This document shows, piece by piece, positions 5,637-32,488 of a stretch of DNA of 47,773 bases; the first letter of the stretch is position 1; each line of letters opens with the position of its first letter. The DNA is from a phage: the NCBI GenBank assembly GCA_036604865.1, contig GCA_036604865.1_4856.1. One strand, written 5' to 3'. The position numbers and the translations under genes were made by a program. The notes beneath the pieces were generated by a model, which saw only the letters and a list, made by a program, of their open reading frames with translations, did not search any database and had not been told where the DNA came from.

Positions 5637-6443
5637 ATGAAAACAAGAAAAGAAGCCGCGCAAGAAGCAAGGGTTGCTGGACTGAAGCAATTTGTGTGTG
5701 AATGGATTCCATGCTCCGTATGTGGTGGAACTGTGTTTTTTACAGCATCAGGCGGATGCAAGCATTGCGTATACGAAAGAACGAGAGCAAGAAGATCTAC
5801 TGCTGAATACAAAGAAAAGATGAAGCAGAAAAACAAAGAAGAGTGGTTAAAAAATAAAAACAACCCAGAATTCAAGGCTATTAAGAAAGAAAGAGATAGG
5901 GAGTTTCACAAGAAATACAAAAAAAGATTAAGCTCAGACATAAAAAAGATGGAGGAATTTCTCAGAAGAAGAAGGGATGCGTACCGTAAATGGTATTACT
6001 CTGAGAAAGGCAACAAAAAGGCTCTGGATAACGTCAAGCAATGGCAAAAGAAACACCCCCACCACGTGTTCCTAAGGAAGATGCTTGAAAGAATTGATGT
6101 GAGGTTGTCTGACGTTGCCATTGATAAAACCGTTGATGATGTGCTTGGTTATACAAAAAGTGATTTTATAAAACACATAGAGTCAACTATGGAGCCATGG
6201 ATGAGCTTTGATAATCGTAGTTGCTGGCATATAGATCACATACTTCCAGTGGACTGGTTTGTAAAAAACAACCTTGTCTACCCAGAACTGGTGAATTCAC
6301 TACATAACCTCAAAGCTGAGCCAGCAGAGTTCAACTGGAAGAAAAACAGGAAGTGGCTGCGCAAGGATATGACGCAATGGGAATTCTGCTACATGCTGCA
6401 ATATATGGTGTATGGTGAAATCAGGTATAAAGAAGGGGGCTAA
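5637..6443 (+). CDS. HNH homing endonuclease
   Basis: HNH core CWHIDHILPVDWF; N-terminal Cys cluster; ATG at 5637 after SD aggag; lone plus-strand gene inside the head block. Confidence 0.65.
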   Translation: MKTRKEAAQEARVAGLKQFVCEWIPCSVCGGTVFFTASGGCKHCVYERTRARRSTAEYKEKMKQKNKEEWLKNKNNPEFKAIKKERDREFHKKYKKRLSSDIKKMEEFLRRRRDAYRKWYYSEKGNKKALDNVKQWQKKHPHHVFLRKMLERIDVRLSDVAIDKTVDDVLGYTKSDFIKHIESTMEPWMSFDNRSCWHIDHILPVDWFVKNNLVYPELVNSLHNLKAEPAEFNWKKNRKWLRKDMTQWEFCYMLQYMVYGEIRYKEGG

Positions 6444-6454
6444 TACCCCCTTTA
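6431..6454. terminator. bidirectional terminator (ggggg-ctaata-ccccc)
   Basis: Hairpin 6435-6450 between convergent HNH and capsid genes. Confidence 0.5.
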
Positions 6455-6463
6455 AATTACATC

Positions 6464-7537
6464 TTAAGCCAATGGTGTTTGCGTCCCGTAACCATTAAAC
6501 ACTTTTGACTTCCCTGCAAAATCGCGTCTCACCTGAAGACCAAAAGCTGACCATACCATAAAGTTAAAGTTATCGTGCGGATTGTCACGGGCTGCCGCAT
6601 AGGTGGAAACAGGCTGAGCAACACGCGGACGGATGTACATGTCGTTGCGAACATAGCCAACGAAATGGTTGCCAGTCAGCAGGAAGTTGGTGCCAATCTT
6701 GCCGATGCGACCATTGCCGAACTGAGTGATGTACTGCTCAACCGTGCCGCCTTTGAAGCCAGCTGCATCAGAATACGGACGCATGAAGCTGCGACGTACT
6801 GCCGGGGAAACCCACAGAGTCACCTGCTCAAATACGTTCTGCGCATCCATAATAGCCTGGAAATCCTGATTGAAGAAGGTCACGATTTCGTCTGGCGTTG
6901 CGGTTTGCAGGTCGATATTCAGGCCGCCGGAAGCATTCAGGTTGACCTGAATAGTGTTCGGGTGGTTGGTGATACCGTAGCCAGTGTAAACGCCGTTCAC
7001 GTTCAGAGTCTGGTCGCCGGTCAGCAGATACTGCGCCATGTCAGAACGCAGGTTGAAGGTGACGTTGGCCTGATCGTCCAGCAGTGGGTCGAAGCCTTCA
7101 GACTGCATACCCAGCAGTTCGCGCCATTCGCGGCTGTAGCCAGTCTTGAAGATTGGAATCACATCGCCAGTGTAATCGTAGCGAGTTTTATCCAAATCTT
7201 CCGGTTCCTGACCAGACAGGGTGCGGACGACCTTACCAGCATCGGAAGCAATGCGGCTGATCGCCACAGTCTTACCGATATTGATGTTTGCCGCGATACC
7301 CATCAGGTCAGCCATCATATCCTGACCAGCTTCGTTGCGGAAAACGCGGGTGGTGACGTTGTCCACGTCGCGCCAGTAATCTTTCGTTACCAGCGCGGTG
7401 GCGTTAACACCGTAGGTTTTTGCCAGTTCGGCTTCTGCATTGCAGAACACTTTGCGGTCGATGGTCAGATGTTTCCACTGGTCAGCCACCACTGCGGAGT
7501 TGGCTACCAGGTCTTTGGTAAAAATAATCTTTTCCAT
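6464..7537 (-). CDS. major capsid protein
   Basis: 357-aa ORF with SD ggag, directly downstream of scaffold-like and decoration-like genes; size and position typical of HK97-fold capsid proteins. Confidence 0.6.
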   Translation of the reverse strand: MEKIIFTKDLVANSAVVADQWKHLTIDRKVFCNAEAELAKTYGVNATALVTKDYWRDVDNVTTRVFRNEAGQDMMADLMGIAANINIGKTVAISRIASDAGKVVRTLSGQEPEDLDKTRYDYTGDVIPIFKTGYSREWRELLGMQSEGFDPLLDDQANVTFNLRSDMAQYLLTGDQTLNVNGVYTGYGITNHPNTIQVNLNASGGLNIDLQTATPDEIVTFFNQDFQAIMDAQNVFEQVTLWVSPAVRRSFMRPYSDAAGFKGGTVEQYITQFGNGRIGKIGTNFLLTGNHFVGYVRNDMYIRPRVAQPVSTYAAARDNPHDNFNFMVWSAFGLQVRRDFAGKSKVFNGYGTQTPLA

Positions 7538-7539
7538 TA

Positions 7540-9419
<1,880 letters not shown>

Positions 9420-9435
9420 GGTTAACTCTCCACGG

Positions 9436-9558
9436 TTAGTTTGTGGTCGAATTATAACACAGGGAGATATAGCACCATGAGGCGGTAGCCAGTGCAAACA
9501 ATGGTGAGTCTGTGAGCGCGTATAGCGTGAGAAAGTAAGTGATAGGGATTATATTCAT
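9436..9558 (-). CDS. small hydrophobic peptide (40 aa)
   Basis: Not in ORF track; SD aggagg six nt before ATG; MNIIPITYFLTLYALTDSPLFALATASWCY... Confidence 0.25.
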   Translation of the reverse strand: MNIIPITYFLTLYALTDSPLFALATASWCYISLCYNSTTN

Positions 9559-9611
9559 GGGCTACCTCCTGATTAAATGATAGCAGCCCATGATGAACAA
9601 AAGATATACGG

Positions 9612-9760
9612 TGTTAGTCTGAAATCACATCATCCATGAATGCGAGCGCAGCACCTGACAGGCAGAACAGCGCGCCATAGCAAATCATCTGGTACAGAGT
9701 ATCAGCCTCAAATACCCTTGCGAATGCGTAGGCTGATAGTATCCACAGTAATGGAATCAT
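9612..9760 (-). CDS. small membrane protein (48 aa)
   Basis: Not in ORF track; ATGA overlap with gene 9757-9945; MIPLLWILSAYAFARVF... with a second hydrophobic segment. Confidence 0.3.
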
Positions 9761-9945
9761 GATCTACCCCTGTTTTCTTTGTAGAGTGCGTCGCAGATTT
9801 TTTGATACTCCCTCTGAAACCAGTCTATGTTCCTGTTGTAATCACTGCCTATTGCCTCAATCTTCTTTGTCGCCATTGCGCTTGCTGCATTAATCAATGC
9901 AACCTGAACCTCAATAGGCAGTTCTGGAAATTTTGGGCTGCTCAT
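9757..9945 (-). CDS. hypothetical small protein
   Basis: 62-aa ORF in ORF track; coupled to upstream gene. Confidence 0.4.
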   Translation of the reverse strand: MSSPKFPELPIEVQVALINAASAMATKKIEAIGSDYNRNIDWFQREYQKICDALYKENRGRS

Positions 9946-10268
9946 AACCCTGCCTCCTGCTTTGCGCGGTGAACGTATGACATAAACTTGCCAATCGGCA
10001 TCTCCTTGCGGATTTGCGCCAGAATAGCGCCGTGCAGCATCCTTTCTTCGCCAAAATACAGCTTATCAAGACGGGTTTTAATAAGTGCTCGCGTGCGCTT
10101 CATGTGGTCGCGTGCCTTAAGTGCTTTCTCATGCCATACGCGATCATTCTTCTTATCAGCATACTGCAGTTGACGATCGACAGTTTCGATTTCAAACGCC
10201 AGCTGCACGTCGTAATCTTCAAGCTGAATGATGTCTGCCTTCATAATGTCATTTAATTGGATAATCAT
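9942..10268 (-). CDS. hypothetical protein
   Basis: 108-aa ORF, charged, no motif recognised. Confidence 0.45.
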   Translation of the reverse strand: MIIQLNDIMKADIIQLEDYDVQLAFEIETVDRQLQYADKKNDRVWHEKALKARDHMKRTRALIKTRLDKLYFGEERMLHGAILAQIRKEMPIGKFMSYVHRAKQEAGL

Positions 10269-10516
10269 TTGCTTAACTCCTTAATGACTTCTCTTGCATA
10301 GCGCTGCGCATCACCGTAAGCGTTTGGTGTATATCGTGATGTCTCGTGACCAGCAAACCAACAATTTACAAGTAATTCTTTGATTTCCTGCTCTGTCAAT
10401 TTAATCATTTTGATTTCCTCCACTATCCACCCCATCTTTCTACGGTTACTGGCGATAAACTCATCCGATGTAATAAACAGAGTTCTGCCTGATTTATGCT
10501 TAATAGCCCATCTCAT
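10265..10516 (-). CDS. hypothetical protein
   Basis: 83-aa ORF; ATGA overlap with downstream gene. Confidence 0.45.
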   Translation of the reverse strand: MRWAIKHKSGRTLFITSDEFIASNRRKMGWIVEEIKMIKLTEQEIKELLVNCWFAGHETSRYTPNAYGDAQRYAREVIKELSK

Positions 10517-10676
10517 TTAGTACGTCCTCAGCAAGTTTGCGGAACATGATTTGCACTCTTGCCACCTTGCGCCACTCAGTCTCGGTGAGAATCACATCTT
10601 CCTGCTTCGGCATTCCCGACATTTCGCATGGCGGTAGCAGCTCATACTCTTGTTTCTTGCGTTTGGCTTTCCCCAT
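10500..10676 (-). CDS. hypothetical small basic protein (58 aa)
   Basis: Not in ORF track; MGKAKRKKQEYELLPPCEMSG...; SD aagggg; overlaps both neighbours, so uncertain. Confidence 0.25.
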   Translation of the reverse strand: MGKAKRKKQEYELLPPCEMSGMPKQEDVILTETEWRKVARVQIMFRKLAEDVLNEMGY

Positions 10677-11130
10677 GATGACCCCTTACATTGCGAAGCA
10701 GTGAATTGAACAGGTTGTTCACATTTACTTCATGCTCCTGCCATGAGTAACGCCACAGCTTCTTGTGGTGGTCATAGCTTCGCGTCACATCGCCGTTATG
10801 AAACATAATGCGAATGCGGCTTTTCACGATTCGGTAATCAATGCCAGTTGCGGCGCTGATTTCTTTCACTTCTGCGCCAGCACTATCAAGCAAATGGCAC
10901 TTAATCGCATCATCAATGCCTGCCGCATCATCAGAGACGAAATACTTATACTGCCATTTTCCACCGCGAATCACTGACTTCTCGCGGCGAATGAAGCCAA
11001 GTGCAAGCATCTCATGCAGACGATGCGTTGTAGTGCTTGAATGCTTTCCGCCGCAATTCTTCTCAATGTATGCGCGCGTTGCTCCTGGGTGATTCATAAT
11101 CACGCGCATTATTTGCGATTTATAGTCCAT
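10642..11130 (-). CDS. putative DNA-binding protein (winged-helix-like)
   Basis: 162 aa; two helix-turn-helix-like segments (IMRVIMNHPGATRAYI... and EISAATGIDYRIVKSRI...); inference from pattern. Confidence 0.4.
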   Translation of the reverse strand: MDYKSQIMRVIMNHPGATRAYIEKNCGGKHSSTTTHRLHEMLALGFIRREKSVIRGGKWQYKYFVSDDAAGIDDAIKCHLLDSAGAEVKEISAATGIDYRIVKSRIRIMFHNGDVTRSYDHHKKLWRYSWQEHEVNVNNLFNSLLRNVRGHHGESQTQETRV

Positions 11131-11377
11131 AATCGCGCTCCTCTGCTGCCTGATTGAAGTCGTCTGCGGTGTAGAGGTGTCCGTTGCGGGTATTCCATCT
11201 CTTTACGGCGTTTTCCCGTAAGCTCCAGTAGTCAGTTCCATTTCCACACATCGCACAGGCAACAAAAAATACACCTCCTTGTATATCGCTATAAGCCTCA
11301 TTTTCTCCGCAAAACGGACACTCCAGCAACCCTTCGTCGTTCATCATCGGCATATGTGGTGCGCTCATTTTACCCAC
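11120..11377 (-). CDS. Lar-like restriction alleviation protein (zinc ribbon)
   Basis: LECPFCG...CAMCG...AVKRWNTR matches the Lar family pattern CPFCG...C..CG...A..WN.R. Confidence 0.5.
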   Translation of the reverse strand: MGKMSAPHMPMMNDEGLLECPFCGENEAYSDIQGGVFFVACAMCGNGTDYWSLRENAVKRWNTRNGHLYTADDFNQAAEERDYGL

Positions 11378-11559
11378 TCCCCAAGATTGTTAAATTTAGG
11401 TGTATTGCCAGACCAGTCGATAACATCCTTCTGCTGACTGCGCTTGCGTTGCAGTCGGTTACGCACTTCTCGCAATTCGCACTCCAGCCATTCGCGAGTG
11501 CGTTCAACTTCATTTAGTCGCTGGATTAGCGATTCTTCGTACAGTTCGTCATGCGCCAT
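11365..11559 (-). CDS. hypothetical small protein
   Basis: 64-aa ORF, charged and helical-looking. Confidence 0.4.
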   Translation of the reverse strand: MAHDELYEESLIQRLNEVERTREWLECELREVRNRLQRKRSQQKDVIDWSGNTPKFNNLGEWVK

Positions 11560-11619
11560 TTATAATTTCTCCCGTAGAATTTGATAACAACGTGCTCAAC
11601 GCACAGATAACCTTCATCT

Positions 11620-11817
11620 TCAACCGTTACTGGTTGAACTATAAACCACCGCAGATATAAGTTCGTCAGCCTTTTCACGACCTGCAACCTCCGCCTCAAG
11701 CGCCAGTGAACACATGGCAGTTTCCACAAACTTAATGGTATCCTCGCGAACGTTAAGGATTTCCATAACCTCGCGAACCTCCTTCTGGTATCTCGCTGCT
11801 ATTTCTTTGTATCGCAT
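11620..11817 (-). CDS. hypothetical small protein
   Basis: ORF track 11620-11847; Met at 11817 follows SD aaggtga and leaves the promoter motif outside the CDS. Confidence 0.4.
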   Translation of the reverse strand: MRYKEIAARYQKEVREVMEILNVREDTIKFVETAMCSLALEAEVAGREKADELISAVVYSSTSNG

Positions 11818-11844
11818 TTCCACATCACCTTTTTCGTTGTGGTA

Positions 11845-11890
11845 CAATCTACGTCAATAAGTATTGACTAAATGATGTAGATTGGTCAAC
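11845..11890. promoter_or_regulatory. divergent regulatory region with TTGACGTAGATTG motif (minus orientation) and TTGACT plus GATGTAGATTG (plus orientation)
   Basis: caatctacgtcaa at 11845-11857 is the reverse complement of the motif at 2505 and 14624; promoter geometry here is not canonical. Confidence 0.4.
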
Positions 11891-11917
11891 AATAATTTTC
11901 GAGAAGGAGTAGTAAAT

Positions 11918-12112
11918 ATGCCAAGACCACGACGCGAGCCGATGGACATTATCACCAGCATTGTGGAGAAGCGGCAGCCGCTGACACTCCGTGATGTTCG
12001 CTACTTTGCCCGTTGCTATGTGGCACTGGCTGATATGCCGAAAGATGAGATGTACGATTTGATTCGTGAGAATTTTGATGTTGATGCAAATAATCGGGTG
12101 ACGATGAAATGA
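11918..12112 (+). CDS. hypothetical small protein
   Basis: ORF track 11882-12112; ATG at 11918 has SD aaggag eight nt upstream. Confidence 0.45.
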   Translation: MPRPRREPMDIITSIVEKRQPLTLRDVRYFARCYVALADMPKDEMYDLIRENFDVDANNRVTMK

Positions 12113-12693: not shown

Positions 12694-13001
12694 TGGCATT
12701 TTGCGACATCACCATCGCGCAACGAAACGCGAACTACACCAACATCGCTGACACTTCCGCACAACTGGTATCACTGAACAGCGACGGCAGCGCAGTGCTA
12801 AAAATCGGCACGGAAACCGCGCAATTCATCGTGCAGAACCTGTCGCAGGCAAACGCAAAGCAGGTGCTGATTAGCACGGGTAGCGTTCTTTTTCTTGCTG
12901 GCAATTACAATGCGCCGAACCTTGAGTGTTCGCTGGTGCGCATTGTTGAAACTACGGTTGAGGAATCTGCTGATGAACCAGCAACATCAACAGCAGAGTG
13001 A
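12693..13001 (+). CDS. hypothetical protein
   Basis: 102-aa ORF, start overlaps previous stop. Confidence 0.45.
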   Translation: MAFCDITIAQRNANYTNIADTSAQLVSLNSDGSAVLKIGTETAQFIVQNLSQANAKQVLISTGSVLFLAGNYNAPNLECSLVRIVETTVEESADEPATSTAE

Positions 13002-13128
13002 ATCGCCAAAGCCATCGGCATGGTGTGAGAAAATGGAACGCAACGCAAAGGATGGTGATGAAGCGTATGCTTATTTTCAGCTGAAGCAGATGTGGAAGCA
13101 GAGAGAAGAGTCGGAACACACCAGTTGA
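12973..13128 (+). CDS. hypothetical small Gln-rich protein
   Basis: ORF track 12895-13128; ATG at 12973 after SD gaggaa; overlaps the end of the previous gene. Confidence 0.3.
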   Translation: MNQQHQQQSESPKPSAWCEKMERNAKDGDEAYAYFQLKQMWKQREESEHTS

Positions 13129-13130
13129 AA

Positions 13131-13155
13131 CAAGCCCCTTATGGGGCTTTTTTAT
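13131..13155. terminator. rho-independent terminator (agcccc-ttat-ggggct then ttttttatt)
   Basis: Hairpin 13133-13148 and T-run; terminates the plus cassette; overlaps the 3-prime end of the spanin gene. Confidence 0.55.
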
Positions 13156-13630
13156 TGCGTAATGAGTCGTACTGAAGCTGACAACTCAATCCAGCGTTGT
13201 AATACCTGTCAGCTTCTTCCGCTGTTCGTCGATAAGCATCGTTGCTTTCTTCAAGCATCCCTCCAAGCATAATGATGACCTCGCGGGTTGTCTTGCCAGA
13301 TGACTCAGTTCCGGTATATTGGCTTGCGAGCTGGCGGATTCTATCGAGTTCCCCGCGCATCCGCTTAGCACTGGACTCAGCATTAACAGCATCATTACGC
13401 GCAGCATCAATCCTTTGTTGTGCGTCGGCCTGAATCTTTTGCAGTTCTGCATTGCGTCTTTGTTCCTCTTGTTCGTCTGCTGCCTTCCGTTCTGCGATGG
13501 CTTTTGCATATCCAGCGGCATATTGTTGCTCACCATAGCTGGATACCTTATTTGCTACCCACAATGCGCCAGCAGCAACAATTATAATAATTGCCAGTGG
13601 TCGCCAGTATTTAGCGAGAATCGACATCAT
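13139..13630 (-). CDS. i-spanin (Rz-like)
   Basis: N-terminal membrane anchor WRPLAIIIIVAAGALWVA then long coiled-coil; directly downstream of endolysin; contains an embedded lipoprotein ORF. Confidence 0.6.
   Translation of the reverse strand: MMSILAKYWRPLAIIIIVAAGALWVANKVSSYGEQQYAAGYAKAIAERKAADEQEEQRRNAELQKIQADAQQRIDAARNDAVNAESSAKRMRGELDRIRQLASQYTGTESSGKTTREVIIMLGGMLEESNDAYRRTAEEADRYYNAGLSCQLQYDSLRNKKAP
13186..13407 (-). CDS. o-spanin (Rz1-like lipoprotein) embedded in the i-spanin gene
   Basis: Alternate frame inside 13139-13630; signal peptide with lipobox LSGC (MLRVMMLLMLSPVLSGCAG); ORF track 13186-13536, start trimmed to Met at 13407. Confidence 0.55.
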   Translation of the reverse strand: MLRVMMLLMLSPVLSGCAGNSIESASSQANIPELSHLARQPARSSLCLEGCLKKATMLIDEQRKKLTGITTLD

Positions 13631-16070: not shown

Positions 16071-16998
16071 CCGATTGCCATGCCTCACGCTGCTTATCAA
16101 GCCTTTCCTGCGATGACTCAAGAATGACTGGTTTTCCATCCATTAACAATGCTGGAGTTTGAGCGCAGTGGCAATTATATCTATTGCCATTCTCGCTATA
16201 GAACGTGTCAATCTCTTCTGGCGTGTAAAACCGCCCGTGTCTCGCCGCGTGAGTCTGGCGTGTTGTGCGCATTAATGCTGATTGCCACAACATCACTGTT
16301 TCAATACCTAATTCCTCGCGCGCCTCAATGACCTCCCGCCTGTTTGCCTGCCGCAGCGTTCCGGTTATTTCAGTCTGCGCTAACTGCTTCGCGTAACTGT
16401 GAGATACATCAACACGCTTGGCGATGTCAGCCTCAACATCACGAGGATTAGCACCACGAGCAATGCCTTCCATAATGACAGATGCCAGTTGCTGACGGGA
16501 ATAATCACTCAATCCGCGCCAGTCTGAGTAACCTTGCGTGTACGCCAGTTGCAGTCGACTCAGGTAAGGCTCACTGTAGAGTATTGCAGCAATCGGCCTC
16601 TGCTCGGCGTAAACCGGAGACAGACTTGACAGTTCTGAGTTTGCCTTCTGCGTTCCGGCCTGATACGCATCACCAATGAATACGTTAGCCCACATCATGC
16701 CGTGACCGAAATCATCACCTTCAAGCAGGATTTCATCAATCAGCGCCTGTAATTCATCCATGAAAGTGGCGGCCCGCGCACTGCTGAAGTCATAGAAATA
16801 CAGGCCACTTGATTCTGCATTAGCCTGACTACCAGGAATAGTGCGAAACAACTCAAGCGCACGACTCCTTAGTTGTTTGTATTTGCGCGTTATCACCTTA
16901 TCCATTTTCGAAAGGCGAGTCGCAGCGCCTAACGGGTCGGTAAGGCTCTGCGATATGCGCGGTTGCGGAAGTCTGGCGTTAAACCGGAGTATCTTCAT
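16048..16998 (-). CDS. head morphogenesis protein (SPP1 gp7 / Mu F-like minor head protein)
   Basis: 316-aa ORF in the conserved terminase-portal-head morphogenesis order; assignment from size, position and general resemblance. Confidence 0.5.
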   Translation of the reverse strand: MKILRFNARLPQPRISQSLTDPLGAATRLSKMDKVITRKYKQLRSRALELFRTIPGSQANAESSGLYFYDFSSARAATFMDELQALIDEILLEGDDFGHGMMWANVFIGDAYQAGTQKANSELSSLSPVYAEQRPIAAILYSEPYLSRLQLAYTQGYSDWRGLSDYSRQQLASVIMEGIARGANPRDVEADIAKRVDVSHSYAKQLAQTEITGTLRQANRREVIEAREELGIETVMLWQSALMRTTRQTHAARHGRFYTPEEIDTFYSENGNRYNCHCAQTPALLMDGKPVILESSQERLDKQREAWQSANKKPSK

Positions 16999-17899
16999 TT
17001 CCCTTTTCCTCCATGCTTTAAAACCAAATCAGCCGCCTCGTGGGTTGATATATTGAAAAATTCGCTCGCCCCATCAAATCCGGTTAATCCTGCATTTTTA
17101 TGTTTTATTTCTTTATGTATCATTGATTCAGCCCTTCTCGCGTCAGCCCATGATGGGAATGAGTGCTCAGCAACCACGGTAACAGTTTTCCCTGCTGATT
17201 TTGATATGCTCTTCATTCTTCTTTTGGTGTTGTTGCTTATCCCGATCTTGCACATGCCATCCATTTCAGCCACATATAAGTTTGCAGGCTTAAACCCATA
17301 AGCAGTGCATTTATTGCAACCTGATCCCCTTAAGTGTGAGTTTGGTGTCTGGTAAAAATCGCCATGGATATGACATGTTATACATACTTTCCTTGAGCTT
17401 TTCACATAATTAACTTCTCGTATGAGTATCTCTTCCCATGAATTGCTTTTGCTTTTGTTATGAATGATGCTTTATTGTCGCTGAATTTGTCGGACAGATG
17501 CTCAAGTTTGCACAAGGGGCAACCATTACCTGATAAATGGTTGGCTGGTTGCTGGGAAAAATCACCGTGCTTTTGGCATGTTATTACCACCTTTCGGTGA
17601 GTTCCGGTATATACGCACTTGTCATATGAATATTTATCACCATGGACCATTTTAGCCTTGGAGATAAATTCATCATTTGATGCCATCAATTTTCTTGCCC
17701 GAACATCTCTAGCGCAAAGTTCGCAGCCGTAGCCAGCGAGATGGCACTCCGCTTTTTGAGTAAAGTCGCCATGTTTTCTGCACGTTATTGTTACTTGATT
17801 CTTCGTTCCGGAGAATGCCAATTTATCATAAATGTACTTGTCACCATGTTTTTGCTTGGCGCGAGAAATGAAGTCTTCCGTGGTGAGTCTTTTAGCCAT
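16995..17899 (-). pseudogene. T5orf172 (GIY-YIG-like) domain protein with three N-terminal Cys/His repeats, split into two ORFs by a single-nucleotide frame change near 17403
   Basis: Repeats FI(S/T)(R/K)AK..HG.KY.Y.K....(11 aa)..ITC..HGDF.Q....HL.G.GC..C occur three times; the third spans the ORF junction with correct spacing only after a -1 shift at ATGTGAAAAG; C-terminal LYVAEMDGMCKIGISNN..RR resembles the T5orf172 core. Confidence 0.5.
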
Positions 17900-17993
17900 G
17901 ATTAACCCCGTAGTAGGTTCGTAGATTGAGGATGCAGCAGGGTGTCTACGTTCACCTTTTCGTCTGGCCGGACTAGCTGCACTTGTGATTATA

Positions 17994-19418
<1,425 letters not shown>

Positions 19419-20329: not shown

Positions 20330-20430
20330 GATTATACTATGCGCTCGGTGTAGATTGGTCAAGTGTGGTGATGCGGATTTATCAACAATAATAAATGTTG
20401 ACGTAGATATGATGGTGATGTAGATTGTAA
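20330..20430. promoter_or_regulatory. cluster of four GTAGAT(T) motif copies including promoter TTGACG-17-TAGATT (20398-20426)
   Basis: gatgtagatta, ggtgtagattgg, gacgtagatat and gatgtagattgt lie within 100 bp; last two form a -35/-10 pair with 17-nt spacer. Confidence 0.5.
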
Positions 20431-20471
20431 TCATTGATGCAGCAATGGTGCTGCTGAAAAAAGAGGGCTGG

Positions 20472-21056
20472 ATGATGGGATGCGATATTCATTTATACAA
20501 AGAGAAAATGATTGATGGGAAATGGGTTTCCGCTGACACATGGGTTAAGGAAGATGACTGGGATGGCGCAGAATACTTTGAGGTGCCTTGGCGCGAAAGA
20601 TTCACCGATCGCAACTACAATCTCTTTGGCCTTTTGTGTGGCGGGGTTAGATCTGAGCATCCTTACTCATTCACCGAGCGTGGAATACCGTTTGATGTAT
20701 GCACAGAGATTGCAGAAAATATTAAACGCTGGGGTTGTGACGGCCATTCTCATAGCTATCTTTATCTGCATGAGTTGAAATGCATGTTGGAATTTCTTGA
20801 AACTGTCACGGTGAATGTTTCAGGAATGAAAGATAAAGACCAACTGGAAGAGCTGCGTAAGTCAATCGCAAGCGGCAACCCTGACTGGAAACTATTGTGG
20901 CCATACTGTGGATGGGCAAGCAGTGATGAACACGAAGAGTTCGACATTGATGTTCCAGCAAATGTAATGCTTGGCGATGGCCTTAAAAAAATCATCTCTG
21001 GATTTGATGGCATTGATGGCGAAAATCATCGAATCGTGTTCTGGTTCGATAACTAA
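20472..21056 (+). CDS. hypothetical protein (moron-like insert between terminase and portal genes)
   Basis: ORF track 20445-21056; ATG at 20472 after SD aaagaggg; own promoter and terminator; opposite strand to the structural genes. Confidence 0.5.
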   Translation: MMGCDIHLYKEKMIDGKWVSADTWVKEDDWDGAEYFEVPWRERFTDRNYNLFGLLCGGVRSEHPYSFTERGIPFDVCTEIAENIKRWGCDGHSHSYLYLHELKCMLEFLETVTVNVSGMKDKDQLEELRKSIASGNPDWKLLWPYCGWASSDEHEEFDIDVPANVMLGDGLKKIISGFDGIDGENHRIVFWFDN

Positions 21057-21061
21057 AAGAT

Positions 21062-21085
21062 AAAGCCCTCCAATGAGGGCTTTTC
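21062..21085. terminator. bidirectional rho-independent terminator (agccctc-caat-gagggct)
   Basis: Hairpin 21064-21082 with flanking A-run and T-run, between gene 20472-21056 and the terminase gene end. Confidence 0.55.
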
Positions 21086-25412: not shown

Positions 25413-25448
25413 ATCATCACCATTAAAAATAAGAGAGCTGAATCGATA

Positions 25449-25715: not shown

Positions 25716-25719
25716 TCTG

Positions 25720-25815: not shown

Positions 25816-25997
25816 TTCTTCGAAGCCTTATATTCATCTTCACTCATCGCATATGCCTCGCAAATCATGTTTGCCGCATCAATGATTGCATTTGAGCGCA
25901 TGTCAGCAGGCAGACTTGCAACCTGTTGTGACAATGCCATGCATATATCGCTGAACAACTTCATCTGGTCAATGTTGTACGTGCTTTCTTCTTTCAT
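25812..25997 (-). CDS. hypothetical small protein, first gene of the minus-strand early operon
   Basis: 61-aa ORF; SD gagggtga; directly downstream of the minus-strand promoter at 26028-26056. Confidence 0.45.
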   Translation of the reverse strand: MKEESTYNIDQMKLFSDICMALSQQVASLPADMRSNAIIDAANMICEAYAMSEDEYKASKK

Positions 25998-26027
25998 CTC
26001 TTCACCCTCGTTTGTTCCGATGAGTTC

Positions 26028-26056
26028 AATCTACATCAACGATGATTCTACGTCAA
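26028..26056 (-). promoter_or_regulatory. sigma70-type promoter on minus strand (TTGACG-17-TAGATT)
   Basis: Reverse complement gives ttgacg (26051-26056), 17-nt spacer, tagatt (26028-26033); opening matches cctgttgacgtaga as at 2501. Confidence 0.5.
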
Positions 26057-26077
26057 CAGGAATGCGTTAAAAACGTG

Positions 26078-26366
26078 CTCGTGGGGTAAATTTTTGCCCG
26101 TGGGGCAGGTCGTGGGGCAGGTCGGTTGCCCCACGTTTTTCATCGTAAATCATTGATTTGAATGTTTTTATTTTTCGTGGGTAAAAAGGGGCAGATTTCA
26201 TACCCATCCCCTTATAAGTATATTCAAATAATCCATTTGTTAATATTATGTTAATTACTATCTATAATATGAATAATAATATTACCCATTAACCCAAATA
26301 ATAATAATTTTATTATATTACATATACTTAGATGAATGTTTCGTGGGGCAGGTTGGTTGCCCCACG
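26078..26366. repeat. iteron-like direct repeats CGTGGGG(C/T)A with inverted CCCCACG copies flanking a ~150-bp AT-rich stretch
   Basis: cgtggggcaggt is tandemly duplicated at 26099-26122 and recurs at 26342-26353, each followed by ttgccccacg; related copies at 26080 and 26176; centre is about 80 percent A+T. Confidence 0.5.
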
Positions 26367-26462
26367 TTAACCCAATTTACCCCTTTTGACGCTTTTTGTT
26401 GTGTTGCAATGCTGGGGAGTAAGTGGTAGTATTTTGGGGAAATAGTTGATTGGGGAGCGGAA

Positions 26463-26735
26463 ATGAGCAATCACGGTGTATTATTAAAGCGCAAATTAAA
26501 CAAACATGGTCGTGGTGCTGGGTGGGTTGCATCATCAAAATCAACCACTGGATACTACGGTGTTGATTACCACAAGGCATCAAAAAAATTCAGAGCGAGA
26601 GTGATGGTACTCAAGAAAAGATATGAGCTTGGTATGTTTGAAACGGCAGAGGAAGCAAACGCTGCTGTTTTGAGAGCCAAGGAATGGTTATCAGAGAATC
26701 CTCATGAGAAATTTGAAACAGAGTACGAGGTCTAA
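26463..26735 (+). CDS. AP2-domain DNA-binding protein
   Basis: GYYGVDYHKASKKFRARV...GMFETAEEANAAVLRAKEWL fits the AP2 fold pattern; first gene of the plus replication module. Confidence 0.55.
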   Translation: MSNHGVLLKRKLNKHGRGAGWVASSKSTTGYYGVDYHKASKKFRARVMVLKKRYELGMFETAEEANAAVLRAKEWLSENPHEKFETEYEV

Positions 26736-28289
26736 ATGATTACAGCTCAAGACATCTTCAACGAAGCAAGGGAATTAAAAGTATCTCCTGCTCGCGTTGC
26801 CTTCCATCATGGCATGACACCAAGCTCAAACATGTGGCTTGACATCAAGGAAGGTAAGGAGCGTGATGTAACGTACTCAGAAACAGAACTGACCAGTGAG
26901 CACCGGACTGATTTACTGTCTCGTTATGCAATCTCAGCTGCTCGCGCCGTTCAGTTCCCAATAAATACATCGTTCATGCATTTACTTGGGTGCGTTGCCA
27001 GCGCAATGACGAGAAACTTTAGCGTTGAGTATTACCATTCAGAGCTTCCAGTTTCTCTTTACGTGGTTACTTCTCAGCCTCCATCAGCTGGGAAAACCGC
27101 CATTAACTCAATGCACATGAATCCGGTGAAGATTGAATATGACAACCTTTCCAAAAAGATGGAAAAGCAGATCATAAAAATAAATCTTCGCATTGAAGAA
27201 CTGATGAAGGCATACAAAGAGGCCAGTAATCAGAATGCAAAGGCACTAATCGGCGACGATATTGCTCGGGAAAAGGAGAAGCTGGAAGAGCTTTATACGA
27301 TTACATATCCACTGACGGACGCAACTCCAGAGGCTGTTCAGCATCAGGCCATTCATGAAGGTGGTTTTTTTAATCTGATAAGTGACGAGGCAAGCGTTCT
27401 TAACACCTGCCTTGGCCTCTCTTACGGAAAAGAAGGTGGAAAGGCAAACGCCGAAGTCATCCTGAAGGGCTGGGATGGCGGATTCATTGGTTCTGCTCGT
27501 GTTGGTCGTGGCGTTTCATCTGGTTACGTGCTTGGAAACATAAGTGTGATTGCGCAGGATGAAAGTATTGATGCCATTCTTGCCGCTGGCGACAGGGGGA
27601 ACGGTCTTTCTGAACGTTTCCTGATGTTGCGAGAGCAATCGATGCTTGGCTATCGCGAACACTGGGACATGGTTAATGACTGCCCTGTAAGCAAGCCAAT
27701 GCCAGACAGCTTGAGGTCGGAATATGCAAGATTTATACATAATGTTGTGTCAGCAGAAAAAACAAAACTGACGCTTCACAATGACTCAGCAAGAATGATC
27801 GGCCTGTTACGAAATCAGTGGGAGAAAAACTTCCTTCCCGGCGGTAAGTGGGACCACGTTCTTCTTCGTGGTGCAATGGGTAAAGCTGATAAGCAAATAA
27901 TCCGCCTGGCAGCAATATTTCACGCTGCTGAAAACTGGTGCGATGGAGGAAGACGGTCAAAAATTATCGGTGAAAATGAAATTAGTCGCGCTATCAGTGT
28001 TTATGACGCACTGACAAAAACATTCACCGACGCCGTGGAATCAAATGGATATGCTGGCGAGCGTTCTGAATTTGATGTTGTTGCCGAAAAGCTACGCTCT
28101 GCCGCTCAGAAAGGAAAAACAAACGTAACGGTGAAGTGGCTTTATGATTCACTTAAAAACGTTCGACCATTCAAAGGGATACCTAAAATTTATGACCGAC
28201 TCAGATCAAGTGTATTGCCATCACTTGAAGAGGATGGTTACTGCGTTTTTATTGGTAATACTGTCCACATTAATCCGAGGTTGAAATGA
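26736..28289 (+). CDS. replication-module protein, possibly DUF3987-like helicase/primase-associated
   Basis: 517 aa; P-loop-like SQPPSAGKT; sits beside primase and helicase genes; family assignment from memory, unverified. Confidence 0.5.
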   Translation: MITAQDIFNEARELKVSPARVAFHHGMTPSSNMWLDIKEGKERDVTYSETELTSEHRTDLLSRYAISAARAVQFPINTSFMHLLGCVASAMTRNFSVEYYHSELPVSLYVVTSQPPSAGKTAINSMHMNPVKIEYDNLSKKMEKQIIKINLRIEELMKAYKEASNQNAKALIGDDIAREKEKLEELYTITYPLTDATPEAVQHQAIHEGGFFNLISDEASVLNTCLGLSYGKEGGKANAEVILKGWDGGFIGSARVGRGVSSGYVLGNISVIAQDESIDAILAAGDRGNGLSERFLMLREQSMLGYREHWDMVNDCPVSKPMPDSLRSEYARFIHNVVSAEKTKLTLHNDSARMIGLLRNQWEKNFLPGGKWDHVLLRGAMGKADKQIIRLAAIFHAAENWCDGGRRSKIIGENEISRAISVYDALTKTFTDAVESNGYAGERSEFDVVAEKLRSAAQKGKTNVTVKWLYDSLKNVRPFKGIPKIYDRLRSSVLPSLEEDGYCVFIGNTVHINPRLK

Positions 28290-28483
28290 TTCCAGAAGAT
28301 GATTGGTATGATGTTGAATGGTTTGATTGCTATCTGTGGCGTCCGCAGATAGGAAGAAATGTTATGGCATTGACTGTTGGTGGTGAAAGAATTCACGCAA
28401 TTTATGATGGTAATAAATTTTTATCATCAAATGATTTGGTTGAAATAATTCACGTTGCATATTGGTGTTATGAGGATGTTTGA
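28286..28483 (+). CDS. hypothetical small Trp-rich protein
   Basis: 65-aa ORF, ATGA overlap with the upstream gene. Confidence 0.4.
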   Translation: MIPEDDWYDVEWFDCYLWRPQIGRNVMALTVGGERIHAIYDGNKFLSSNDLVEIIHVAYWCYEDV

Positions 28484-28557
28484 AATGAGCAAAACACACG
28501 AACTAAAAATCTTACATGAACACTTCTGGCCTAAAGCGCCAGAGTTTAATGAATAAC

Positions 28558-28588
28558 AAAAACCCTCCATATGGAGGGTTTCTTTTAT
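28558..28588. terminator. bidirectional rho-independent terminator (accctcc-atat-ggagggt then T-run)
   Basis: Hairpin 28563-28579 between convergent genes. Confidence 0.55.
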
Positions 28589-29538
28589 CTGCTGACTGAC
28601 ATTTTTTCTATCAACTCGCCAGCGTCATAAATCTTTCTCCTGATTCGCTTCGCCATCATGATAGTGTCCGCATCATCAGGCAGCATCACCGGTAGTCCTG
28701 CGTTTTCCGCAGCGCAAAGTTCATCAAATTTATAATTAACTATGCAGCGCAATCTCGCTTTCACCTCATCGCTAACCGAGCGCACAACCTCCCACATGTT
28801 TTCTGGCGACCAGCAGCACCATACGTGAGCGCCAGTGAAGTAATGGCACTTCCACGCGTCGGCATAATCAGATACCAGGTAAATGAACTTCCCGTTATCT
28901 TCTCCGATTGGGCTTATCGCGCCGCGCGTGAGTTTGCCGTTGATGGCTGAGTCCTTGTTGTACCCTGCGCGGAAAAACGTTTTGAATGAATCACCATCCA
29001 TGCCAATGAATGCCACGTTGCACGGCTTCATTGTGTCAGCTCGCATCATCTCAACCGCAATAAGCTCTCCAGATTTACCTCTGGCAACATTAACGTCGCA
29101 ACCAATACCATTTATCAACGTCCACTCATTCATCTCGACACGCGTCGTTTTAGCCATGATTGCGGCGACTTCCTGTTCGGTGATGAAGTCATCGTTGTAA
29201 TTTATCTTCGGCATCTCCTTCCTGATTGCCTCCAGCTTTTCGCATGGGTGCATGTTCAGGAATCCTCCCAGCGCCTCCAGTGCTTCAGGAAAGCTCATGC
29301 CTGAAAGTTTCATCAGCCAGTTCATGCCGCTGCCGGAGCCGCACTGATTGCAGATTGCACCGCCATCGCCTTTTGTTTCTAAGTTGTCATCAAAGCGATA
29401 TCTGTCTGTTCCACCACAACTTGGACATGGCTGGTGCTTACCATTGAAAACTCTGCTATCCACATTGACGATAGACATGATGGCGGCCTGCCAATTTCCG
29501 AGCATTTTTGGCTCAATGTCTTTCCAGTCGTATCTCAT
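28585..29538 (-). CDS. DNA primase (zinc ribbon plus TOPRIM-like)
   Basis: C4 zinc ribbon HQPCPSCGGTDRYRF...CNQCGSG then acidic motifs (FIGMDGD); ORF track begins with TTG at 29601, Met at 29538 preferred. Confidence 0.6.
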   Translation of the reverse strand: MRYDWKDIEPKMLGNWQAAIMSIVNVDSRVFNGKHQPCPSCGGTDRYRFDDNLETKGDGGAICNQCGSGSGMNWLMKLSGMSFPEALEALGGFLNMHPCEKLEAIRKEMPKINYNDDFITEQEVAAIMAKTTRVEMNEWTLINGIGCDVNVARGKSGELIAVEMMRADTMKPCNVAFIGMDGDSFKTFFRAGYNKDSAINGKLTRGAISPIGEDNGKFIYLVSDYADAWKCHYFTGAHVWCCWSPENMWEVVRSVSDEVKARLRCIVNYKFDELCAAENAGLPVMLPDDADTIMMAKRIRRKIYDAGELIEKMSVSR

Positions 29539-29613
29539 AAATTGACCCTTGATTGTTGGTGTAGATTGAGTATAAGCTAACTGACGTAGAAACATCAACA
29601 AAGGTTAGTTGCT

Positions 29614-31539
29614 ATGACGCATAAAATAGACAAGATGATTTCAGAGATTGACATTAACTTACTGAAATCCTGCTTGGATACTGGTGATATCGAGCCAAGA
29701 CCCTATCAGTGGTTGATATATAAGTTAACTGGTGATGTGATTCGTCATTATGTTGGCCCGAGCTATGTAACGGCAAGTGTAGGTAGTGGAAAGTCACTGA
29801 TGATTGCCATGATAGCAAAGCGTTTTCAGGAAATGGGATATTCAGGGATGATTTTATCAAGACAGGGAGAAATAGTGGAGCAGGATGCGGAAGAGCTATG
29901 GTCGCTTGGTGTTAGAAACTCGCTATTCAGTGCTTCGTTGGGTAGGAAAAGTTCTACTTATCCAATAATCTGTGGTTCTGAGGGTACTGTTATAAATGCT
30001 TTGTTTGATAAAAAGGATGAGTCAGGGAATGTTATTGCAAAAGGTGCGCTCTCTGACTTTTGCCCAAGATTCCTGCTTATCGATGAAAATCATATGGTTA
30101 ATGACATTGATGTTGTTAATAATGGTGATACGCAGTATGCAGTGATAATTAATGAGCTAATGAAAAGGTGCAAAGATAAGCACGGCCATGAGTTGAGAAT
30201 AATAGGTTATACAGGCTCACCGTTTCGCGGAACTACATCAATAAAAGGCGCTTTCTGGAAGAAGGAGATTATCAACATAGACACCAAATACATGGTTGAA
30301 AACGGTTTTCTTGTGCCAACAATTTTTGGTCTTCATGATGTTGATAGTCTGCATTATGACCTTTCAGATTTTCATGGTTCAGATGTTGATGGCACTCAGG
30401 ACTTTACCTCCGAGCAGCTCAAGCAGATGCAAAAAGAAATTCTTGAGCAAGGTACGTTGACGCAGAAAATCATGCTCAAGGTTATGGAGTTGACTAAAAA
30501 CAGAAACGGCGTACTGATTACATGTGCTGGTAAAAAACATTGTCAGGAGGCGGCAAAATACCTACCAGAAGGGAGTTATTCAATAGTTACAGAAGATATG
30601 GGGTCAAAAGCCAGAAGGAAGGCTCTAAAAGATGCATACACCGGGCGCAAAAAATTCACATTCCAGATAGCCGCCCTTACCACTGGCGTAAATATACCGT
30701 TATGGGATACGAGCTGCATATTACGAAAAATAATGTCGCTCACCCTTCTTGTTCAGTTGCTTGGTCGCGGAATGCGCCTGCTGAAGAAAGAGCAAATTGA
30801 TGCCGGGTATCATAAAGAAGACCATTTGGTTCTTGATTTCTCTGGCACGATGTTTGAGCTTGGTCAGTTATATGAAGACCCAATTCTGGAAGAAGCTGAA
30901 GCGCAGCGTTCAAAACGCATTGGTGAACAGGTTCCGTGTCCGAAATGTGGAACAATGAACAGCCCATATGCGCGCCGCTGCATTGGCAAAGATGCATTGT
31001 CGACAGATGGTAGATGCGAAGAGTTTTTCAGTTACATTCGCTGTGGATTTGACAAGCACGGAATCCGTATTTTTGATGATGGCTGCGGCACTAAAAACGA
31101 CCCTACAGCTCGCTATTGCAGACATTGCGATCACGTTTTGCGTGACCCGAATGCGGCACTGAATGAGCGTGCGTATACAGATAATGAGTGGGCTGATGTT
31201 ATGGATTTCAAAGTCCAGTTAACGAAGGATGGAGATGGGATTTTGTATCGCTACTGGATTAATCGTTGTGATGGCAAAGAGGGATGGGCTAATGAGGTTT
31301 TCTATCCATACGGCGGCGCAACTCACATGAAAAACATGTTCAAGGCGAAGGCCATCTTCCCTCACCTTGATGATAAATCAATGGCTGGGAGAATCCTGAA
31401 ATGCCAGAACGCAAAACAATTCATGATGTATGCGGGGTTAATTAAAGCGCCAAAACGCATCACGCATCGGATTAATGATAAAGGTCGCGACATTATCCAC
31501 AGAAAAGAATTTAAAGGAGAACAAAGTGAAGCAGCTTGA
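29614..31539 (+). CDS. superfamily 2 DNA helicase (DExH-type)
   Basis: Walker A ASVGSGKS, motif II LLIDENH, C-terminal Cys-rich zinc-finger-like region; 641 aa. Confidence 0.75.
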   Translation: MTHKIDKMISEIDINLLKSCLDTGDIEPRPYQWLIYKLTGDVIRHYVGPSYVTASVGSGKSLMIAMIAKRFQEMGYSGMILSRQGEIVEQDAEELWSLGVRNSLFSASLGRKSSTYPIICGSEGTVINALFDKKDESGNVIAKGALSDFCPRFLLIDENHMVNDIDVVNNGDTQYAVIINELMKRCKDKHGHELRIIGYTGSPFRGTTSIKGAFWKKEIINIDTKYMVENGFLVPTIFGLHDVDSLHYDLSDFHGSDVDGTQDFTSEQLKQMQKEILEQGTLTQKIMLKVMELTKNRNGVLITCAGKKHCQEAAKYLPEGSYSIVTEDMGSKARRKALKDAYTGRKKFTFQIAALTTGVNIPLWDTSCILRKIMSLTLLVQLLGRGMRLLKKEQIDAGYHKEDHLVLDFSGTMFELGQLYEDPILEEAEAQRSKRIGEQVPCPKCGTMNSPYARRCIGKDALSTDGRCEEFFSYIRCGFDKHGIRIFDDGCGTKNDPTARYCRHCDHVLRDPNAALNERAYTDNEWADVMDFKVQLTKDGDGILYRYWINRCDGKEGWANEVFYPYGGATHMKNMFKAKAIFPHLDDKSMAGRILKCQNAKQFMMYAGLIKAPKRITHRINDKGRDIIHRKEFKGEQSEAA

Positions 31540-31942
31540 CAGCGGTATATGGGTATTTGATAGCGGTTATCGTGGTGAGTGTCCGAAAGAAGAGACTGAG
31601 CAGATGATGTACGGTTGCTGGATGGACTATCAATTCCCAAATGCAATATGGTTTCACGTTCCAAACGAGACGGGAACAAAAAGCGGACCTCAGTTCGTTC
31701 TTAAACGCCAGAAAATGGGCGTAAAACGAGGCGTTAGCGATGTAATCATACTAAGTAATGGTGTAGCTCATTGCGGAGCAGTAATGGAGCTTAAGCGAGC
31801 TGACAGAACAAAATCAAAGGTATCAAAAGAGCAAGCTACGTTTCTTGAGAAGGTGGCTGATCAAGGAAAGTTCGCGGCCATAGCCTACGGCGCTGAGCAA
31901 TTAAAAAAAGCTACACTTTTCTATTTTGGAGTTGACAAGTAA
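31526..31942 (+). CDS. VRR-NUC domain nuclease
   Basis: PD-(D/E)xK-type core GVSDVIIL...MELK; GTG start at 31526 after SD aggag (ORF track 31475-31942). Confidence 0.55.
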   Translation: MKQLDSGIWVFDSGYRGECPKEETEQMMYGCWMDYQFPNAIWFHVPNETGTKSGPQFVLKRQKMGVKRGVSDVIILSNGVAHCGAVMELKRADRTKSKVSKEQATFLEKVADQGKFAAIAYGAEQLKKATLFYFGVDK

Positions 31943-31984
31943 ATCATACCACTTTACAATCCAATCATACCAAAGAGGTGTCGC

Positions 31985-32488
31985 ATGGATAAAGAATATG
32001 TAGATGAATGGCTTGTTGTTAATGCGGATGAGGGCACTGTTTTTTGGCGAAAGAGTAGAGGGCTAGCGAAAGCAGGTAATTCTGCAATACATAAACATGA
32101 AATCACTTCCAGAGGAGGAGCGAAATACAAAGTTATATCATTCGGAAGGAGACAGTGGTTATTACATAGATTTATCTGGACGTATGTTAACGGTGAAATA
32201 CCTGATGGAATGGTTATCGATCACATTGATGGAGACACAAGCAATAATTCAATAAAAAACTTAAGAATTGCCAGTAGGTCTGAGAGTTCATTTAACAAAG
32301 GGATGTTTAAAAATAACACATCTGGCGTAAAGGGTGTTTATTGGGATAAGAGAAATAAGAAGTGGATGGCGTACGGAAGAATAAATGGAAGGATGAAAAA
32401 TCTTGGAAGGTATTCCTCAATTGAGGATGCTAGAAATGCCGCAGATACATTCAGGCGAGTTAATTTTAAGGAATTTTACAGGCGGTGA
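31985..32488 (+). CDS. HNH homing endonuclease with AP2 DNA-binding domain
   Basis: HNH_3-type motif VIDHIDGDTSNNSIKNLR followed by AP2-like GVKGVYWDKRNKKWMAYGRINGRMKNLGRYSSIEDARNAA. Confidence 0.65.
   Translation: MDKEYVDEWLVVNADEGTVFWRKSRGLAKAGNSAIHKHEITSRGGAKYKVISFGRRQWLLHRFIWTYVNGEIPDGMVIDHIDGDTSNNSIKNLRIASRSESSFNKGMFKNNTSGVKGVYWDKRNKKWMAYGRINGRMKNLGRYSSIEDARNAADTFRRVNFKEFYRR

Follow-up and report, generated by a model that had tools for sequence, protein, structure and literature searches.

Three genes of the homing endonuclease type, here called HEG1, HEG2 and HEG3, lie in a phage DNA of 47,773 bp (NCBI GenBank assembly GCA_036604865.1, contig GCA_036604865.1_4856.1), which was analysed whole and is called the window below. 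We read them as three freestanding cassettes of three nuclease lineages, each at the junction of two conserved genes, and give this reading a probability of about 0.85. We infer that HEG1 and HEG3 are active in homing, HEG2 being at the stage of decay. The case is an ordinary one: freestanding homing endonuclease genes are of a known kind, and their cycle of gain, spread and decay is the standard picture.

An earlier note on this DNA had listed the three genes together with a stand-alone AP2 gene, and all four were found at the positions it gave. The endonuclease genes and their open reading frames (ORFs) are the following.

5637..6443, plus strand: HEG1 ORF, 268 aa
16995..17899, minus strand: HEG2, a T5orf172-type endonuclease gene, frameshifted
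31985..32488, plus strand: HEG3 ORF, 167 aa, with HNH_3 and AP2 domains

Small siphophages whose hosts are Salmonella, Escherichia, Shigella and Klebsiella match the window. The nearest phages, swi2, C1 and Sf11, are 88–92% identical over at most 72% of its first 25 kb, and they belong to the ‘Skatevirus and relatives’ cluster of the BASEL collection paper (PMC11990801). Positions 1–127 are the same as 47647–47773, an exact terminal overlap of 127 nt. The identical ends therefore make the window a circularly closed assembly of about 47.6 kb, and it is a complete Skatevirus-like siphophage genome.

Each of the three cassettes shows presence/absence polymorphism at one site among close relatives, with boundaries precise to the base. 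The flanking ORFs stay open at all three insertions in the alignments with empty sites, and each cassette contains a promoter-like box, which is read from the sequence only. The comparison of insertion sites with endonuclease-free relatives, proposed in the earlier note, gave clean breakpoints against natural empty sites for all three genes, and none of them is fixed at an identical position in all relatives. The interpretation given in that note is supported.

None of the relatives examined has all three cassettes together. HEG1 and HEG3 occur without HEG2 in sal3, HEG1 and HEG2 without HEG3 in VSt472, and HEG2 only in NX263. The endonuclease families of the window also occupy several other gene junctions in relatives, and the endonuclease genes at other junctions number at least seven in sal3 and four in swi2. 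The other ORFs of the window that were tested yielded no further endonuclease domain.

The HEG1 protein has no match by sequence in Pfam, NCBIfam or PDB. It matches PHROG 1035 ‘endonuclease VII’ with E=1.4e-24. Its close homologues make only 15 clusters at 90% identity, and a profile built from the family reaches 7,334 proteins (E≤1e-3). Among 84 sampled relatives linked by this profile, 19 match Pfam HNH PF01844, the best with E=1.7e-4. Seven residues are invariant in the 84-sequence alignment (C41, C44, D200, H201, N224, N233 and K236), and its consensus is WHIDHI.P…N.L.NLQPLW..DN..K.

The protein is laid out as an N-terminal CxxC...CxxC zinc ribbon, basic helical repeats (about residues 56–140) and a C-terminal HNH (H-N-N) beta-beta-alpha-metal domain, in which the motif WHIDH falls at 197–201 and is followed by N224 and N233. 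The AlphaFold2 (AF2) model made with the 84-sequence alignment has a pLDDT of 94.6 and a β-β-α unit at residues 197–236, where strands are predicted at 197–201 and 225–229 and a helix at 230–236. It supersedes an earlier AF2 model from a 14-sequence alignment, whose C-terminal domain had a pLDDT of 66. D200/H201, N224 and N233 fit the HNH layout of a catalytic His after the Asp that ends beta-1, a structural Asn and a metal-binding residue in the helix.

A Foldseek search of the model against viral models found proteins named ‘intron encoded endonuclease’, ‘HNHc domain’ and ‘HNH endonuclease’ with E of 1e-8 to 1e-5, and solved HNH nuclease structures match it weakly. We accept that the HEG1 product, with its N-terminal zinc ribbon, is predicted to be a divergent HNH-superfamily protein of the H-N-N type. 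The earlier note had called it an HNH endonuclease; this is borne out, by the remote profile and the structure and not by sequence in Pfam, NCBIfam or PDB. All of the close homologues listed in the phage collection search are annotated ‘hypothetical protein’, and the family can now carry the annotation HNH-type homing endonuclease (predicted).

The STPR DNA-binding repeats are tandem 23-residue units with conserved Glu1, Thr/Ser2 and Arg9 (PMC4856987). HEG1 may represent an unannotated HNH family reading DNA via an STPR-like helical-repeat domain, which has so far been described mainly in animals.

The HEG1 insertion site has these features.

5551..6434, plus strand: HEG1 cassette, DNA without counterpart in empty-site relatives (by alignment, swi2, C1 and NX263 are empty; ZCEC08, sal3 and VSt472 are occupied)
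5604..5612, plus strand: putative extended −10-like box TGGTAATAT upstream of HEG1
5625–5629, plus strand: AGGAG, the ribosome-binding site (RBS) of HEG1
6435..6450: GGGGGCTAATACCCCC hairpin (GGGGG/CCCCC) directly 3′ of HEG1, with the HEG1 stop codon in its loop
5348–5328, minus strand: the only scanned terminator near HEG1
6452..6551, minus strand: 3′ end of the major capsid gene travelling with HEG1, a putative co-conversion tract

The cassette displaces about 21 nt of a 43-bp spacer between a 65-aa gene and the major capsid gene. Its breakpoints are at 5550/5551 and about 6434, and the blastn gap against swi2 extends over 5551–6473. The site is occupied by HEG1 in about 10 of the 201 matching records. 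In swi2, C1 and NX263 it is the 43-bp intergenic spacer with a hairpin of its own, and in STGO-35-1 it has an unrelated 348-nt gene.

The insertion gives the neighbours a new RBS region and a new hairpin, GGGGGCTAATACCCCC standing where the empty sites have GGGGCTTTCGCCCC. The earlier note had HEG1 flanked by terminators. A hairpin is indeed present directly 3′, but at 6435–6450 it did not pass the terminator scan, and the sole scanned terminator lies on the minus strand beyond the 65-aa gene to which it belongs, some 290 nt before HEG1 starts.

HEG1 homologues with 58–77% protein identity (VSt472, BUCT610 and CF-SP1) are found next to the major head gene, at precisely the site that HEG1 has in the window. 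As such diverged homologues keep the site, the family is old there. This site fidelity is typical of homing endonucleases.

The HEG1 ORF is 96.8–98.3% identical to those of ZCEC08 and sal3, and the 108 bp next to it, comprising the hairpin and the capsid 3′ end, are 94–98% identical. Outside this block the identities to the same two phages are 88–89% for the 65-aa gene and 90–91% for the next 100 bp of the capsid gene. The stretch 6452–6551 reaches 98–100% and the next 50 bp 82%. Against the HEG-less alleles and the diverged VSt472 allele, the capsid 3′ end has 46–78% identity.

HEG1 together with some 100 bp at the 3′ end of the capsid gene thus makes a one-sided block of higher identity, which looks like co-conversion. 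The capsid 3′ end would be the obvious candidate for the cleavage or immunity region of HEG1. What looks recent here is the exchange of the window's allele and not the insertion of the family, so the ‘recent insertion’ of the earlier note fits the former and is not borne out for the latter.

The HEG3 product is recognized directly by Pfam, with HNH_3 at E=1e-18 (67.1 bits against a cut-off of 24.8) and AP2 at E=1.7e-8 (35.1 bits against 33.3). Both domains being above the cut-offs, it is the HNH-AP2 fusion that had been claimed. It also matches PHROG 99 ‘HNH endonuclease’ with 2.5e-53, and its motif VIDHIDGD…N…NL is intact.

31930..32491, plus strand: HEG3 cassette (by alignment, sal3 is occupied and Bas81 empty; swi2/LPST10/LPSTLL and HC6 were also aligned)
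31932..31960, plus strand: putative promoter TTGACA-17 nt-TACAAT in the HEG3 cassette

The left breakpoint, 31929/31930, falls within the last codons of a VRR-NUC-like gene, and the right one, 32491, immediately before the ATG of the exonuclease VIII gene. The cassette supplies the VRR-NUC-like gene with a new ending and stop (…GVDK*). Among 170 matching phage records HEG3 is shared only with 64795_sal3, at 87% DNA identity.

At least four states of this site exist between the VRR-NUC-like and exonuclease VIII genes. It is empty with a spacer of about 37 bp in Bas81, has a 177-nt ORF in swi2, LPST10 and LPSTLL, has the HNH-AP2 gene in the window and sal3, and has a different, 567-nt HNH-type gene in HC6 and Bas77-79. 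The gene of HC6 (L017 858-1424) and Bas77-79 reads IDYINGVRDDN against IDHIDGD of HEG3, its catalytic His appearing as Tyr, and it may be an inactive or diverged endonuclease.

HEG2 is split into two ORFs in the window.

17402–17899, minus strand: N-terminal fragment of HEG2, 165 aa, with zinc-ribbon repeats
16995–17405, minus strand: C-terminal ORF of HEG2 with the T5orf172 domain
17415..17416, minus strand: site of the 1-nt deletion (AAA to AA), from alignment with BS5, VSt472, Seszw_1 and YX3973
17994..18041, minus strand: replacement C-terminal tail of the portal gene, 15 codons and a stop from the HEG2 cassette, from alignment with Bas81 and Segz_1

The C-terminal ORF matches T5orf172 with 1.7e-11 (45 bits against a gathering score of 20) and MUG113 with 7e-11. 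The N-terminal ORF has DUF723/DUF4379-like zinc-ribbon repeats, tandem modules of about 65 aa each with the pattern HGDKY…C..HG.F.Q….HL.G.GC..C. The loss of one A (GAGAAAG to GAGAAG) brings a stop at 17402–17404, before the catalytic domain, and no single intact frame links the DNA-binding repeats to it. The orthologues of Seszw_1, BS5 and VSt472 are each a single intact ORF of 906 nt and 301 aa. In the sequence as assembled, HEG2 is inactivated by this 1-nt deletion relative to its intact orthologues, and its description in the earlier note as a frameshifted T5orf172-type gene was right.

The truncated HEG2 product was looked up in public assemblies and not found elsewhere, so the frameshift is either private to the window's phage or an error. 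If it were a sequencing or assembly artefact, the real phage would have an intact 301-aa T5orf172 endonuclease. The change is of a single base in a short A run, the closely alignable natural orthologues examined (Seszw_1, BS5 and VSt472) are all intact there, and no other assembly records the truncated product, all of which suit an artefact. However, the run has only three A's and is not a typical error-prone homopolymer, and the exact 127-nt terminal overlap would point to short-read de Bruijn assembly.

Moreover, the decay of homing endonuclease genes is common, and the orthologue in the Klebsiella phage YX3973 (L011) is also split. It is annotated as two ORFs and has an in-frame TGA where the others have TGC for Cys, a second and independent instance of decay at this site. 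We consider the artefact unlikely and keep the reading of HEG2 as a decayed gene.

The HEG2 gene is present in Seszw_1, BS5, VSt472 and NX263. The empty sites of Bas81, Segz_1, Sf11, INT55, SB28 and KFSST1 have the same portal allele, 90–100% identical up to the junction, and there the portal and head-morphogenesis genes overlap. The breakpoints are 18041/18042 and 16998. The HEG2 stop overlaps the head-morphogenesis start (ATGA), so the overlap is restored.

The positions of HEG1 and HEG2 raise the question of domestication, in which one or more of the nucleases would serve the phage as a packaging HNH partner of terminase or portal, as a weapon against co-infecting phages or satellites, or as an AP2 regulator. 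HEG1 adjoins the capsid gene, and HEG2 has the portal gene on one side and the head-morphogenesis gene on the other. In some cos phages HNH proteins beside the packaging genes are essential, and exclusion between phages can be mediated by homing endonucleases.

Against domestication, each gene is absent from most relatives, which are viable isolates. HEG2 is T5orf172-type and not HNH, and it is frameshifted here, while its orthologue has been deleted from engineered seszw genome-reduction mutants that are viable (PMC9825161). A domesticated role is very improbable.

Homing would work at these sites in the following way. Each cassette would bring its own promoter. In a mixed infection the HEG1 and HEG3 enzymes would cut the HEG-less allele near the insertion site, HEG1 probably in the capsid 3′ end or the spacer, and recombinational repair would copy the cassette and some flanking DNA into the recipient. 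Such cut-and-repair copying would account both for the patchy occurrence of the cassettes and for the block of high identity around HEG1. HEG2 would be at the decay stage of the homing cycle.

Several points weigh against this reading. Mosaicism runs throughout these genomes, with many indels and allele swaps that involve no endonuclease, so general recombination is another way in which the cassettes could move. No rise in identity is seen in the left flank of HEG1. The HEG2 flanks show no clear co-conversion tract in the alignment with the empty sites of Bas81 and Segz_1, and the HEG2 frameshift could be an assembly error.

The first of these points leads to a view of the cassettes as passive accessory genes, shuffled by general homologous or illegitimate recombination and not by endonuclease activity of their own. 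It gains from nuclease-free indels and allele replacements against swi2 and sal3, such as 4493–5323, 20425–21062 and the 26063–28515 module, and from HEG2 coming without a co-conversion tract. However, all three cassettes encode nuclease-domain proteins, lie exactly at gene junctions and have a promoter-like box of their own. The diverged HEG1 alleles retain one site, the high-identity block is centred on HEG1, and the same endonuclease families sit at several other junctions in relatives. Passive shuffling is improbable, and we prefer the homing cassettes.

The HEG2 cassette has one more component, a structured RNA leader.

17919..17983, minus strand: int-alpA-type three-way-junction RNA motif in the 5′ leader of HEG2
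17988..17996, minus strand: extended −10-like box TGATATAAT, overlapping the portal stop codon and followed 5 nt downstream by the RNA motif
L019 3376-3481 and 27221-27261, L001 6182-6222, and loci L024-L133: copies of the leader elsewhere

The int-alpA RNA motif is RF02996 in Rfam (Weinberg et al. 2017, PMC5737381). The alignment of the HEG2 leader covers the full RF02996 model and shows the junction bases CUAG / CGAAAAG / CCUG as in int-alpA. It scores 29.8 bits, below the gathering score of 35.8, with E=1e-4 locally and 0.027 over the whole window. Among 15 loci with a HEG2-type leader, five exceed the gathering score (38.9–49.7 bits). A hammerhead-type ribozyme was rejected as the identity of the leader, its junction sequences by inspection not fitting CUGANGA/GAAA.

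The leader is the stretch of about 100 nt between the portal stop and the HEG2 start, and it recurs before paralogous T5orf172 genes at other insertion sites. The full element is 86% identical upstream of sal3 gp05, and only its first 41 nt or so recur upstream of sal3 gp51 and swi2 gp06, at 85–90% identity. HEG2-type leaders were found at 208 places in 124 phage records. The leader opens with an extended −10 box, TGATATAAT or TGGTACAAT, followed by the three-way junction with compensatory changes. The window has no second copy, and no int-alpA match lies near HEG1 or HEG3.

Scanning IMG/VR with a pattern in which the outer stem was fixed, and which was hence biased by that stem, gave 113 leader instances; the P0 stem was set by the search pattern and carries no information on covariation. 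Distinct stems numbered 15 for P1 and 31 for P2. The mean nested pairs were 3.1 for P1 and 3.2 for P2, compared with 0.7 and 0.6 in 1000 shuffles (maxima 1.46 and 1.19). The single-sequence folding energy of the HEG2 leader is no better than that of shuffles (z=0.16), so the structural support for the leader comes from the covariation only.

Of the 106 instances for which a downstream ORF was detectable, 105 have its start codon 13–40 nt downstream and one has it at 247 nt. Of 48 distinct motif copies, 45 have TAnnnT no more than 22 nt upstream. The downstream proteins fall into 36 clusters, among which are HNH_3 (16 clusters, 7 with NUMOD4 and 6 with AP2), T5orf172 (8), HNH (3), HNH_5 (2) and GIY-YIG (1). 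The rest are a recurrent protein of about 940 aa, a metallophosphatase and a few unknowns. At least four nuclease families thus have endonuclease genes with this leader in front: HNH_3, T5orf172, HNH/HNH_5 and GIY-YIG. The ‘classical’ int-alpA subtype is found on satellite-like contigs of about 16 kb, upstream of non-endonuclease ORFs.

Taken together, the start-codon distances, the −10-like boxes and the downstream genes give the motif the behaviour of a promoter-proximal 5′ leader on mobile-element genes. Homing endonuclease genes of unrelated families are strongly associated with one of its subtypes. The leader may travel with HNH_3 (NUMOD4 or AP2), T5orf172, HNH/HNH_5 and GIY-YIG genes between insertion sites and phages.

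We put forward jointly, at somewhat under even odds, that the leader is a portable device common to unrelated endonuclease families and, separately, that HEG1 stands for an HNH family with STPR-like reading of DNA. If true, the orphan RF02996, which is typed as small RNA (sRNA), gains a cis-acting context, and the leader suggests that selfish endonuclease genes have in common a device that controls them post-transcriptionally or stabilises their mRNA.

The AP2 gene named in the earlier note is of another kind.

26463..26735, plus strand: gene for a stand-alone AP2-like DNA-binding protein, 90 aa

Its product matches Pfam AP2 with E=6.7e-4 and 20.4 bits, below the cut-off of 33.3, and PHROG 35306 over its full length with 1e-56. 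It resembles the AP2 part of HNH-AP2 PHROGs (1.7e-13) and weakly the AP2 of HEG3 (E=0.001), and its homologue in phage Akira is annotated ‘AP2 domain’. The product may be called AP2-like by these likenesses, while the curated threshold does not establish its AP2 membership.

A DUF3987 helicase gene follows directly, and the pair is 95–97% identical in Akira, DS8, IME207, Vi II-E1 and C1. swi2 gp22 and sal3 gp68 were tried as orthologues of the AP2-like gene and rejected, being unrelated by BLASTP. With its helicase partner and the unrelated proteins of swi2 and sal3 in its place, the AP2-like gene therefore belongs to one allele of the replication module, AP2 + DUF3987, in which it stands first, and is not a homing endonuclease. 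The stand-alone AP2-like gene of the earlier note is thus present, and it is not to be counted among the mobile endonucleases.

The replication-initiation module (26063–28515) combines a small protein with a large helicase or primase, and its alleles in close relatives are non-homologous. In this position swi2 has gp22/gp21 and sal3 has gp68/gp67, and the AP2 + DUF3987 pair of the window is not detectably similar to either. Upstream of the two genes, a 28-nt repeat with an internal palindrome (TCGTGGGGCAGGTYGGTTGCCCCACGTT) occurs twice, at 26110–26137 and 26341–26368. It is also annotated in phage Vi II-E1 and may be an origin, an operator or a terminator.

Other observations concern the rest of the genome. 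A 276-aa gene of unknown function at 4493–5323 on the minus strand is also presence/absence polymorphic. It is present in swi2, C1 and STGO-35-1 and absent in sal3, ZCEC08, VSt472 and NX263, where a RusA-like gene abuts the 65-aa gene. A lone plus-strand ORF of 203 aa at 20445–21056 stands amid minus-strand genes next to the large terminase. It belongs to PHROG 10141 (function unknown), has no Pfam match and no counterpart in swi2 or sal3, and could be another mobile or accessory gene.

The plus-strand ORF at 765–1205 was rejected as a homologue of the swi2 HNH gene gp86; it has no Pfam match, and swi2 12824–13537 is without counterpart in the window. The only tRNA of the window is the following.

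47642–47718: tRNA-Met, spanning the circular junction and partly duplicated at the window start

The finding as given changes little, freestanding homing endonuclease genes being already known as a cause of phage mosaicism. In the papers found, they are mentioned for Jerseyvirus phages and Gordonclarkvirinae (PMC8425127, PMC11990801), not specifically for this group. With the three sites mapped to the base, cleavage and homing tests can draw on both empty and occupied alleles. The shared structured leader is the more interesting lead; if confirmed, it connects an orphan RNA motif with how selfish endonuclease genes are expressed.

Each part of the set has known counterparts. HEG1 is like the HNH proteins of the PF01844-like ‘H-N-N’ variants (PHROG 1035) in D-H...N...N...K, in the predicted beta-beta-alpha unit and in its structural matches. 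HEG3 is like the phage endonucleases of HNH_3 and AP2 (PF13392 and PF00847; PHROG 99) in having both domains and the canonical DH...N...NL motif, but is short (167 aa) and lacks the NUMOD4 N-terminus that many relatives have.

The C-terminal domain of HEG2 is like those of the T5orf172/MUG113 endonucleases (GIY-YIG-related; PHROG 681), and the paralogues swi2 gp06, sal3 gp05 and gp51 and Skate gp09 share its N-terminus of tandem zinc ribbons of about 65 aa. HEG2 differs in being split by the frameshift ahead of the catalytic domain. Its leader is like int-alpA in the three-way junction and the conserved junction bases, and related leaders reach the gathering score. Whereas RF02996 is typed as sRNA in Rfam, the motif is here promoter-proximal, 13–40 nt before start codons and mostly those of endonuclease genes.

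As a whole, the cassettes resemble the freestanding homing genes of the T-even phages, seg and mob (for example SegB-G, MobE and the I-TevIII-like HNH). Both are inserted intergenically between conserved genes. They are alike also in a patchy distribution in close relatives. The T-even genes have their own promoters and co-convert flanking markers, to which the promoter-like boxes of the cassettes and the one-sided block at HEG1 may correspond. In T4, homing endonuclease genes are under translational control by a hairpin at the Shine-Dalgarno sequence, and a small hairpin likewise covers the Shine-Dalgarno region in the HEG2 leader. The cassettes of the window differ from the T-even genes in the phage group, that of small Skatevirus-like siphophages, and in the nuclease lineages.

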